Assembly (NCBI GenBank): GCA_963737265.1
Contig: CAVTRY010000022.1
Coordinates: 128,001-192,000, forward strand
Direction: 5' to 3'
Source of the DNA: an uncultured delta proteobacterium
Lineage (GTDB): Bacteria > Myxococcota_A > Polyangia > Fen-1088
DNA: 64,000 nucleotides
The notes below the pieces were generated by a model. The model was not told the DNA's origin. It did no database searches and saw only the letters and a program-made list of their open reading frames with translations. Made by a program: the position numbers and the translations under genes. This document shows, piece after piece, positions 14,244-16,273 of this stretch; the first letter of the stretch is position 1; every line of letters starts with the position of its first letter.

Positions 14244-14357
14244 GACAATTTACCAACACCTTGGACGGCTACGATGAGAACGATGACACACCAAACAAAT
14301 CCGGCCTCCCGAGAGAAAGCCCAAACCTCACGGAAACTAAGGGATAATGGCCCCGAG

Positions 14358-14534
14358 CTAGCAAGCCCCCTGGGCCATCAGATCCTGGATACGATCCTTG
14401 ATGGCCAGCTTCTCCTTCTTGAGCTTGGCCCGATCGGCCTGTTCCTTGGAGGTTAGAGAGACATGCGCGTCGATAACGGCCAGTGCTTCTTCCAATTCCC
14501 TGTGACGCTGCCTTAACGCATCGATCTCGTTCAT
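14358..14534 (-). CDS. DUF465/YdcH-family small coiled-coil protein (58 aa)
   Basis: Manual translation MNEIDALRQRHRELEEAL...LKKEKLAIKDRI; below the ORF-track size cutoff. Confidence 0.8.
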   Translation of the reverse strand: MNEIDALRQRHRELEEALAVIDAHVSLTSKEQADRAKLKKEKLAIKDRIQDLMAQGAC

Positions 14535-14541
14535 GGACCAC

Positions 14542-15087
14542 CTAGATCGTATACGTGCGCCGCCGCGGAGTCAACCGAGGCGACGACAGAGGGTGCTTCC
14601 CTGAAATGGGGGCTGGGGCTTCACCTCGCCCCGCGCAGGTGGGATCGGAGGGAAAAACAGGGAGGAACGGAGGACCAGAGGAATCACGGGTTGGGTTGAC
14701 GAGGCGGCGGAGACCCTCGCGAAGTACGGGGACGTGGAAATTGACGAGCAGGCCCACCGGCAGTCGTAGGAGCTTGAGATAGGTAATGATCTGTGCCAAG
14801 TGGACAGGAAGCAACTGCTCTACCGCCTTGACTTCGACGACCAAACGGCCTTCCACCATGAGGTCGAGGCGATAGCCGCAGTCGAGGTCAATGCCTTTGT
14901 ACTGCAGAGGAATCGCGACCTGACGTTGCGTGCGAAATCCACGCAGGCCTAGCTCGCGCGCCAGGCAGTGCTCGTAGGCCGACTCAAGCAGCCCGGGACC
15001 GAGGTGACGGTGGACTTCGATGCAGGCGGCGATAATTTGCCCAGTAAAGTCATCCTGTCTCTGTTTCTCCGTTCCTCGCTGTTCCAT
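14542..15087 (-). CDS. GxxExxY protein (PD-(D/E)XK nuclease-like)
   Basis: EVHRHLGPGLLESAYEHCL, YRLDLMVE, VEVKAV, AQIITYLK, GLLVNF. Confidence 0.93.
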   Translation of the reverse strand: MEQRGTEKQRQDDFTGQIIAACIEVHRHLGPGLLESAYEHCLARELGLRGFRTQRQVAIPLQYKGIDLDCGYRLDLMVEGRLVVEVKAVEQLLPVHLAQIITYLKLLRLPVGLLVNFHVPVLREGLRRLVNPTRDSSGPPFLPVFPSDPTCAGRGEAPAPISGKHPLSSPRLTPRRRTYTI

Positions 15088-15169
15088 ATCTGCGTTTTCG
15101 GCGGCACTCCGCCAGAAGTTGCTACCTCACCGAGCCCCCGGCTGGGGCCCCCGTTTCAGGGAGGCACCC
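14591..15169. mobile_element. Non-autonomous IR-bounded element (MITE-like) carrying GxxExxY
   Basis: TIRs GGGTGCtTCCCTGAAAtGGGGG at 14591-14612 and reverse complement at 15148-15169 (20/22 match); direct repeat GACGACAGA at 14582-14590 and 15170-15178. Confidence 0.75.
14656..15083. repeat. Inner 25-bp inverted repeat bracketing the GxxExxY core
   Basis: AACAGGGAGGAACGGAGGACCAGAG (14656-14680) vs reverse complement of 15059-15083 AACAGCGAGGAACGGAGAAACAGAG, 22/25. Confidence 0.8.
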
Positions 15170-15352
15170 GACGACAGATGCGACAGATGACGGACCATCC
15201 ATTCGCTGATTCAGTTAGCCAGAATGTACGATCCTGCCGCGCACCGACGTTGACGGTTTGCGGCTAAGTGAATAGAATCGCACCGTTTGGATTCATTAAG
15301 GCCTAGCAACATTGCAGCCGAGGATATAGGCCCCGCCGGGGTCGAGAGCACC

Positions 15353-16273
15353 ATGTGGACCCTGAAATTCATCTCGGGCAAGTACCAGGGGGGCGAATTT
15401 CCGCTCCGGCCCAACCGTGAGATCATCGTTGGTCGATCGTCCGACCTCGACATGGTCTTGGTCGAGGACATGGTTTCGCGCAAGCACGCCAAGATCGCGA
15501 CCGACGAACATTCGGTTTCGATCCAGGACTTGGGCTCGACCAACGGAACCTTCGTCAACGGCGAAAAGATCCGCACCGTCCGCTTGAAAGAGGGCGATCG
15601 AATCTTGGTCGGCACGTCGATCATCAAGTTGATCGCGGCGAACAGCGAAGCGCCGATTCCGTCGTCGGGGCTATCGGAGAACGAGGCGCGCTCGAAGATG
15701 CAGGTCACCGCCAACCGCCGGCCCGAGCCCAAGATGATGCAGGGTAATATCGAGGAGATTCCCTTGCCGGATCTGCTGCAACTGCTTTCCACCAGCCGCA
15801 AGTCCGGCGTGCTTGTGCTGCGTTCGGAATGGGGAACCGGGCGGCTTTACATGCGCAAGGGCCAGATCTATTTCGCCAACGTCGACGAAAGCTTCGACGT
15901 GAGCCCACGCAAGGCCATGTTCCGCATGTTGACGTGGGACAAGGGCTTGTTCGAACTGGAGCCGCCCGACGACCGCACGGTGATGGAGGAGATTCAGGAC
16001 AGCACCGAGGGCCTACTGATGGAGGGTATGCGCCAGCTCGACGAATTTCGCGAGCTGTCGTCCAAGCTGCCGCCGTTCGAAGCCATCGTTTCCATCCCGC
16101 ACCCGCTCGCGCCGCGCCTGCGCGACCTCAAACCGCAAGAGCTGGATTTGATGCAAACCGCGCTCAACGAAGCGACGGTGCAACAGATCATCGACCAAAG
16201 CCCGCAGACCGACCTCGACACCGCCCAGGCGCTGCTGGCGTTGCTCGAACGCGGCTATTTGATCGTCGGATAG
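15353..16273 (+). CDS. FHA domain + DUF4388 protein
   Basis: IVGRS, VSRKHA, DLGSTNGTFVNG; then GNIEEIPLPDLLQLL..SRKSGVL, LLMEGMRQLDE. Confidence 0.9.
   Translation: MWTLKFISGKYQGGEFPLRPNREIIVGRSSDLDMVLVEDMVSRKHAKIATDEHSVSIQDLGSTNGTFVNGEKIRTVRLKEGDRILVGTSIIKLIAANSEAPIPSSGLSENEARSKMQVTANRRPEPKMMQGNIEEIPLPDLLQLLSTSRKSGVLVLRSEWGTGRLYMRKGQIYFANVDESFDVSPRKAMFRMLTWDKGLFELEPPDDRTVMEEIQDSTEGLLMEGMRQLDEFRELSSKLPPFEAIVSIPHPLAPRLRDLKPQELDLMQTALNEATVQQIIDQSPQTDLDTAQALLALLERGYLIVG

Follow-up and report, generated by a model that had tools for sequence, protein, structure and literature searches.

A transposase-less element with a GxxExxY passenger gene is probably a mobile insertion cassette with ISKra4-type ends

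Introduction

How did a 579-bp DNA segment that has the terminal inverted repeats (TIRs) and target-site duplication of a transposon, and that encodes no transposase, come to lie between two genes of an uncultured Myxococcota-like bacterium, and does its only gene, a member of the GxxExxY family, contribute to its spread? The locus lies in a stretch of 64,000 nucleotides (hereafter the window; G000:C22:128001-192000, where G000 is the source genome and C-numbers designate its contigs). The original prediction depicted a MITE-like cargo unit mobilized in trans by a DDE transposase, and alternatively envisaged a GxxExxY protein that drives its own spread, which would help explain the patchy distribution of the family.

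Prokaryotic Mutator-like elements are described, in the available text of PMC3942029, as bounded by inverted repeats (IRs) that are 18-39 bp long and terminate in C, and as flanked by 8- or 9-bp direct repeats. According to the same source, ISLre2, TnGBS and part of the ISKra4 group target sigma-A promoters: their insertions fall 13-17 bp upstream, most often at 16 bp, and promoters are found on either side of the element where the IRs are nearly symmetrical. Among mobile insertion cassettes (MICs), MIC231 of Bacillus cereus is reported in the accessible part of PMC3913671 to be mobilized in trans by the transposase of IS231A. The literature on GxxExxY, PF13366, PDDEXK_3 and TIGR04256, as far as its text was available, consists of passing mentions, “function unknown” and multiple transfers; under these family names, it contained no link of GxxExxY to ISKra4 or MICs.

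Results

Structure of the element and its passenger gene

The features of the locus are as follows (positions in the window, strand, description and source).

14542..15087, minus: GxxExxY open reading frame, 181 aa (ORF list, alignment of copies)
14546..14574, minus: predicted sigma-70-like promoter of the DUF465 gene, TTGACT-17-TACGAT (consensus scan)
14582..14590, no strand: left 9-bp target-site duplication GACGACAGA (sequence reading, repeat search, table of genome copies)
14591..15169, minus (gene strand): whole 579-bp non-autonomous element, a probable mobile insertion cassette (one of 35 paired genome copies)
14591..14612, plus: TIR on the 3′ side of the gene, GGGTGCTTCCCTGAAATGGGGG (the identical 22-mer terminates ISKra4-family elements in metagenome contigs)
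14591..14639, plus: putative IS-derived end module, about 49 nt including the TIR (compared with L202, the metagenomic IS “B”, at its left end)
14656..14680, plus: arm of the inner inverted repeat, on the 3′ side of the nuclease domain (repeat search, pair I1)
14704..15051, minus: PD-(D/E)XK-like domain (PF13366 / TIGR04256), residues 13-128 (profile search)
15059..15083, plus: inner inverted-repeat arm over the start codon and first codons (repeat search, pair I1)
15148..15169, minus: TIR on the 5′ side of the gene, GGGTGCCTCCCTGAAACGGGGG read inward, or CCCCCGTTTCAGGGAGGCACCC as the partner of GGGTGCTTCCCTGAAATGGGGG
15170..15178, no strand: right 9-bp target-site duplication GACGACAGA (same sources as the left one)

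Sequence reading and repeat search bear out the predicted 579-bp unit, its exact 9-bp duplication and its 22-bp TIRs, which are complementary at 20 of 22 positions. The repeat search itself reported a TIR pair of 23 nt with 91% complementarity and an exact direct repeat of 10 nt, because the C preceding the left 9-mer is identical to the last base of the right TIR. The element terminus reads ...GCACCC-3′, and the TIRs end GGG...CCC. As predicted, the element sits between divergent genes encoding a DUF465 protein (14358-14534, minus strand) and an FHA-DUF4388 protein (15287-16273, plus strand). Alignment of the copies described below places the window copy at 2 differences from the family consensus, and a scan of 14300-15500 against Rfam (E up to 1) returned no match.

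Inside the TIRs, a second inverted repeat flanks the gene closely. Its two arms (14656-14680 and 15059-15083) are 25 nt long and 88% complementary, are built of short purine-rich words and have no duplication around them.

The largest frame of the element matches PF13366 with 139.2 bits (cut-off 22) and TIGR04256, GxxExxY, with 141.2 bits (cut-off 35). These are its sole family matches, and 579 bp leave no space for a second gene, so the description of a transposase-less unit with GxxExxY as its only gene holds. The translation contains G32-L-L-E35-S-A-Y38 and D75...E85-x-K87; we take the G-x-x-E-x-x-Y motif together with D...E-x-K to be the defining residues of the family. A sequence search of solved structures (E up to 0.01) gave no match for the protein. 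The frame has no stop codon within the element, either in the window or in the family consensus; in the window it continues across the TIR as far as 14542, 47 nt into the flank. Every copy thus gains its own C-terminal tail from the flanking DNA. In the window, the frame terminates just past the −10 box that belongs to DUF465 and 8 nt short of the ATG of that gene.

TIRs, a passenger gene and a duplication that differs from site to site are the features of a MIC. We rejected the term MITE in its strict sense, which usually denotes non-coding elements under 300 bp, for an element of 579 bp with a 129-codon gene.

Copies across the genome

A search of the genome with the TIR pattern, allowing up to 3 mismatches, returned 75 matches, against 0 and 1 for the reversed pattern used as a control. 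Element ends account for 73 of them and form 35 pairs plus 3 solo ends. Of the 35 pairs, 32 are flanked by exact direct repeats, 9 bp long in 31 cases and 10 bp long in one. The duplications comprise 31 different 9-mers, only two elements sharing one site, which confirms the anticipated occurrence of copies with different duplications.

The pairs span 564-580 bp in 29 cases; two carry internal insertions (681 and 776 bp) and two extend over about 2.0 kb. Aligned copies of normal length show 0-9 differences from the consensus, except for four copies that form a subfamily, are 10-15 bp shorter and have diverged by about 5%. The two long pairs (C20:14118-16133 and C23:162554-164571) were considered as autonomous forms and rejected, being ordinary copies interrupted by an unrelated IS. 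The same IS of about 1.44 kb interrupts both, at different internal positions; its 441-aa transposase is presumably IS4-like, judging by a motif.

The element has undergone recent multiplication to 35 paired copies in this genome. PF13366 is matched 43 times in G000 versus 0-3 times in each of the 30 relatives searched, which indicates a burst specific to this genome; the same 30 relatives contain no such TIR. Short derivatives that have these TIRs and lack the gene were not found in the genome, the cargo being kept in 35 of 35 copies. Such derivatives are hardly expected among copies so alike. Their absence would fit a recent burst, yet it would also be consistent with a role for the cargo.

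Origin of the ends

The sole matches of the TIR pattern outside the element family are the two ends of a resident IS of 2120 bp (G000:C20:66979-69098; L091 1480-3599), which is intact and single-copy. Both of its TIRs agree with the TIR of the element at 19 of 22 positions, and it has its own 9-bp duplication, GGAAAGCGG. Its 466-aa transposase matches the ISKra4-family profile NF033572 with 256.9 bits (cut-off 205), and a search of the 30 relatives yielded no homologue above 33% identity. The TIR of this IS itself found no match when scanned over one genome per species. Downstream of the transposase gene lies a 144-aa frame without a Pfam match.

Exact TIRs were found in metagenome contigs, a scan of which returned 22 stretches. 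In four contigs, a pair of exact TIRs, separated by 2.0-2.15 kb, encloses a transposase that shares 73-75% identity with that of the resident IS, and the two of these transposases that were scanned match NF033572 with 241.7 and 242.4 bits (cut-off 205). Likeness of the ends extends beyond the TIR: 14591..14639 aligns by eye with the left end of L202, the roughly 49 nt differing only by a mismatch and a 1-nt indel. Another contig, L213, contains a relative of the element with the same 5′-side end module and an internally deleted GxxExxY gene. These shared ends indicate that the element is a GxxExxY cassette framed by two ISKra4-type end modules, each of about 46-49 nt. A point against is that neither of the two metagenomic ISs with both flanks readable has a duplication, which may reflect chimeric assembly across repeats, joining different copies.

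The search for the TIR on an autonomous IS, which the original prediction had brought up, was thus successful with exact ends in metagenome contigs and gave only a 19/22 match in G000, whose assembly (99.5% complete, 25 contigs) contains no autonomous IS with exact TIRs. This counts against a resident source of the transposase, as does the difference of the resident IS from the element at 3 of 22 TIR positions per end; that the resident IS could cross-mobilize the element is an assumption.

A scan for the exact TIR over one genome per species returned only one solo end, in one other metagenome-assembled genome (MAG). It lies at 2001-2022 of MAG contig L088, at the end of a 177-aa frame and with no partner within 2 kb, and is probably a remnant.

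A second resident ISKra4-like IS, of 1782 bp, has TIR GGGTGGGTTGCACGGG, 9-bp duplications and 10 full copies that are 99.7-100% identical (for example C22:80621-82403 and C7:274440-276221); its transposase is 31% identical to that of the 2120-bp IS. We set it aside as the mobilizer, with about half of the TIR positions matching by eye.

With 22-bp IRs, a terminal C and a 9-bp repeat, the element has the termini and duplication given for the ISKra4 group in the available text of PMC3942029. A DDE transposase of its own, as encoded by members of the family, is absent, which makes it a non-autonomous derivative and not an IS.

Insertion-site preference

We read the flanks outward from both ends of the 35 copies (70 flanks, offsets 0 to 59). 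The trinucleotide TTG begins at exactly 16 nt in 16 of the 70 flanks, representing 15 of the 35 elements, with 8 occurrences on the 5′ side of the gene and 8 on the 3′ side. At any other offset it is present in at most 3 flanks. Given a TTG background of 1.38% per position, the binomial probability of 16 in 70 is 2e-15. Several of these TTG boxes are followed 17-18 nt on by a TAnnnT box. In the window copy, the −35 box of the DUF465 promoter begins 16 nt from the left end of the element, just upstream of the DUF465 start codon. Against this preference stands the fact that 19 of the 35 copies have no TTG at offsets 15-17.

The same offset recurs among ISKra4-like elements that encode a transposase: by eye, TTG lies exactly 16 nt from one end in 6 of the 10 copies of the 1782-bp IS (P = 2e-7) and three metagenomic ends show it as well. 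An offset of 16 nt upstream of a TTG-type −35 box agrees with the target preference known for part of the ISKra4 group.

At C17:62354-63520, two different copies stand head to tail in the same 9-bp target, with three copies of CCGTGGCGC, which means that the same position was struck twice. This tandem double insertion fits precise targeting. A TTGACC box is located 16 nt from the pair.

Empty sites in relatives

Comparison of 14300-15300 revealed no empty site that could be read for the copy in the window: where relatives match both the DUF465 and the FHA-DUF4388 genes, the two are unlinked, which implies a rearrangement breakpoint in or near the spacer between them. The duplication of the element is intact despite this breakpoint.

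Another copy, C12:160720-161298, was informative. Its flanks align to four syntenic relatives with 6-20 nt between the alignments, hence the element is absent there in all four. The single 9-mer was not found at the orthologous site in these four relatives, owing to divergence of the spacer, in which the 9-mer has not been conserved. The copy at C12:150784 is not syntenic in relatives. The expectation of an empty site in relatives is therefore satisfied for C12:160720 as far as absence of the element goes; the restored single 9-mer was not seen there, and the window copy was unreadable.

Inverted-repeat arms in the wider GxxExxY family

We examined the first 51 of 80 GxxExxY loci from many phyla for an inverted repeat of at least 14 nt around the gene. 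Inverted arms surround the gene in 43 of these 51 distant loci, with arm words such as CACAGAG, CGCAGAG, CACGAAG or GGAAGGCGG, and no flanking direct repeat was found among the arm pairs shown. The inner repeat of the window is of the same kind as these hairpin arms. It is the outer, transposon layer, confined to this genome and a few metagenome contigs, that accounts for the 9-bp duplication and the high copy number. Armed loci without a duplication imply that the TIR route does not explain the distribution of the GxxExxY family in general. Together with the 30 relatives that lack the TIR, they speak against the proposal that the element accounts for the patchy occurrence of the family.

Further cassettes were observed in the same genus. 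A single GxxExxY gene with CACAGAG-type inverted arms lies between recA and the end of a gene ending ...ALQYR.LD, which we take to be comM-like, in at least 7 genomes (G000 and those of L071, L073, L074, L076, L078 and L082). The G000 copy (C22:198374-198724) lies just past the end of the window and has no outer TIR. By look, the protein encoded at this locus is much more diverged between species than the flanks. Four genomes of the genus have no match to PF13366. At L102-L109 (G003 and G004), we observed derivatives of this cassette lineage that are gene-less, an in-frame deletion of 273 bp having removed the nuclease core; both outer ends (CCCTTTCAAGGTGTT...) are present in 4 of these 8 loci, 313-327 bp apart, and palindromic flanks reach further out. 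Their outer vehicle differs from that of the window. Upstream of the gene at L075 (G005:C17), the 3′ end of a cassette is joined directly to the next 5′ region without TIR modules, an arrangement suggestive of bare cassettes joined head to tail.

Contribution of the passenger gene

Only 15 of the 31 normal-length copies aligned retain a start codon and an uninterrupted domain, and one more has a compensated double frameshift. Nine copies share the frameshift 382delG, which truncates the domain at about residue 100; three have lost the start codon (ATG to CTG) and three carry 369insC, and the copies with a common lesion sit at different sites with different duplications. Copies with a dead frame thus kept inserting at new sites, which argues that GxxExxY is a passenger and does not act as the transposase. 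Within the genome, the gene has 12 synonymous and 18 non-synonymous unique substitutions, indicating relaxed constraint. Between species, dN/dS values of 0.39, 0.13 and 0.10 (three relatives) point to purifying selection and thus to a protein that is functional over evolutionary time. GxxExxY is not needed in cis, and intact copies could complement the others in trans.

We considered that the cargo is not passive: a transposase would cut and join, while the armed cassette would aid retention or copy-number gain, or act on neighbouring promoters. The retention of the inner arms and the absence of gene-less derivatives with these TIRs agree with this view, as do the arm pairs that stay complementary across phyla although built of different words (43 of 51 loci) and the relative with the same 5′-side end module in L213, an unrelated metagenome contig. 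The disruption of the reading frame in about half of the copies and the relaxed constraint on the cargo tell against it, and short derivatives are not to be expected among copies with 0-9 differences (the subfamily apart); we regard this explanation as unlikely. The same low standing applies to a more specific form, a two-layer selfish unit in which a hairpin-armed cassette, itself insertable without target duplication and present across many phyla, would have acquired promoter-seeking Mutator-like IS ends, its nuclease or hairpin aiding retention or spread. If true, it would explain the cargo in 35 of 35 copies and in the metagenomic relative as well as the lack of a gene-less derivative.

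It is very improbable that the GxxExxY nuclease itself catalyses the spread or is required for it, which would make the element autonomous and the protein a new kind of transposase. This idea draws on GxxExxY being the sole gene, on the catalytic-type residues D75, E85 and K87 that are intact in the window copy, on the retention of the gene in every copy and on the purifying selection between species. The original prediction had allowed for it, and it finds no support in the frameshifted, start-less and 369insC lineages inserted at new sites, even though complementation in trans by intact copies is conceivable for these. Moreover, ISKra4 elements, which code for a DDE transposase and lack GxxExxY, have the same ends, 9-bp duplication and 16-nt offset, and GxxExxY relatives elsewhere have a flanking duplication in 0 of 51 loci. 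Finally, the idea that both repeats, the inverted one and the direct one of 9 bp, coincide by chance in a flank rich in GACAGA, for which one could cite the second CGACAGATG word that follows the right duplication (repeat search, family D13), is refuted by 35 paired copies, 32 of them with exact duplications of at least 9 bp at unrelated sites.

Discussion

Our results indicate, with a probability that we put at roughly 0.85, that the element is a non-autonomous unit of the ISKra4 family of prokaryotic Mutator-like DDE elements, that is, a mobile insertion cassette with a GxxExxY passenger. The numerous copies with their duplications, the TIRs identical to those of ISKra4 elements and the shared site preference uphold the prediction of a MITE-like cargo mobilized in trans by a DDE transposase. 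We propose that an ISKra4-family transposase supplied in trans would bind the 22-bp GGG-ended TIRs and make a 9-bp staggered cut, insertion occurring preferentially 16 nt upstream of a sigma-70-type −35 box in either orientation. The mobilizer could be the resident 2120-bp IS, with its 19/22 ends, or an exact-TIR relative no longer present in the assembly. Transposition may proceed through a circular copy-out intermediate, as proposed for these families in the available text of PMC3942029. The passenger gene rides along with its own inner inverted-repeat arms and is dispensable in cis.

Read as a mobile insertion cassette, the element provides a clean bacterial case of a non-autonomous Mutator-like (ISKra4) element with a whole gene. 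Its 35 copies mark, to the single base, where sigma-70-type promoters lie in the genome of an uncultured Myxococcota-like bacterium, and as promoter-adjacent insertions they constitute natural material on effects upon neighbouring genes. They also reveal that a GxxExxY cassette can ride a DDE transposon, one concrete route to high copy number in a single genome. Comparison with the 51 other loci makes this ride the exception and not a general account of GxxExxY distribution.

Among the closest known systems are ISs of the ISKra4 group (p-MULT 4; Guerillot et al. 2014, PMC3942029). The element shares with them 22-bp GGG...CCC IRs, a 9-bp duplication and insertion, in either orientation, at 16 nt upstream from a −35 box, and its TIRs are identical to those of NF033572-encoding elements. 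Unlike these ISs, it has no transposase and measures 579 bp versus about 2.0-2.15 kb. In the main text of the study, passenger genes appear only within four transposase-bearing ISKra4 elements, and the word “MITE” does not occur.

Like MICs, the element combines IS-type inverted repeats, a passenger gene and a target duplication with the absence of a transposase, and its ends match an autonomous IS. It differs from MIC231 in belonging to the ISKra4 / Mutator-like and not the IS231 / IS4 lineage, in its 35 copies, in its promoter targeting and in its hairpin-armed passenger. In contrast to the bare hairpin-armed GxxExxY cassettes, the cassette is here enclosed in a second, outer repeat pair, that of a DDE transposon. 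Pack-MULEs of plants are Mutator-like non-autonomous elements that carry pieces of host genes. The element resembles them in being non-autonomous, in its Mutator superfamily membership, in its 9-bp duplication and in its captured coding sequence; it is bacterial and carries a whole small gene where Pack-MULEs carry fragments, so that the homology is at the superfamily level only. The element is thus of a kind already known, the mobile insertion cassette, here of the ISKra4 family.
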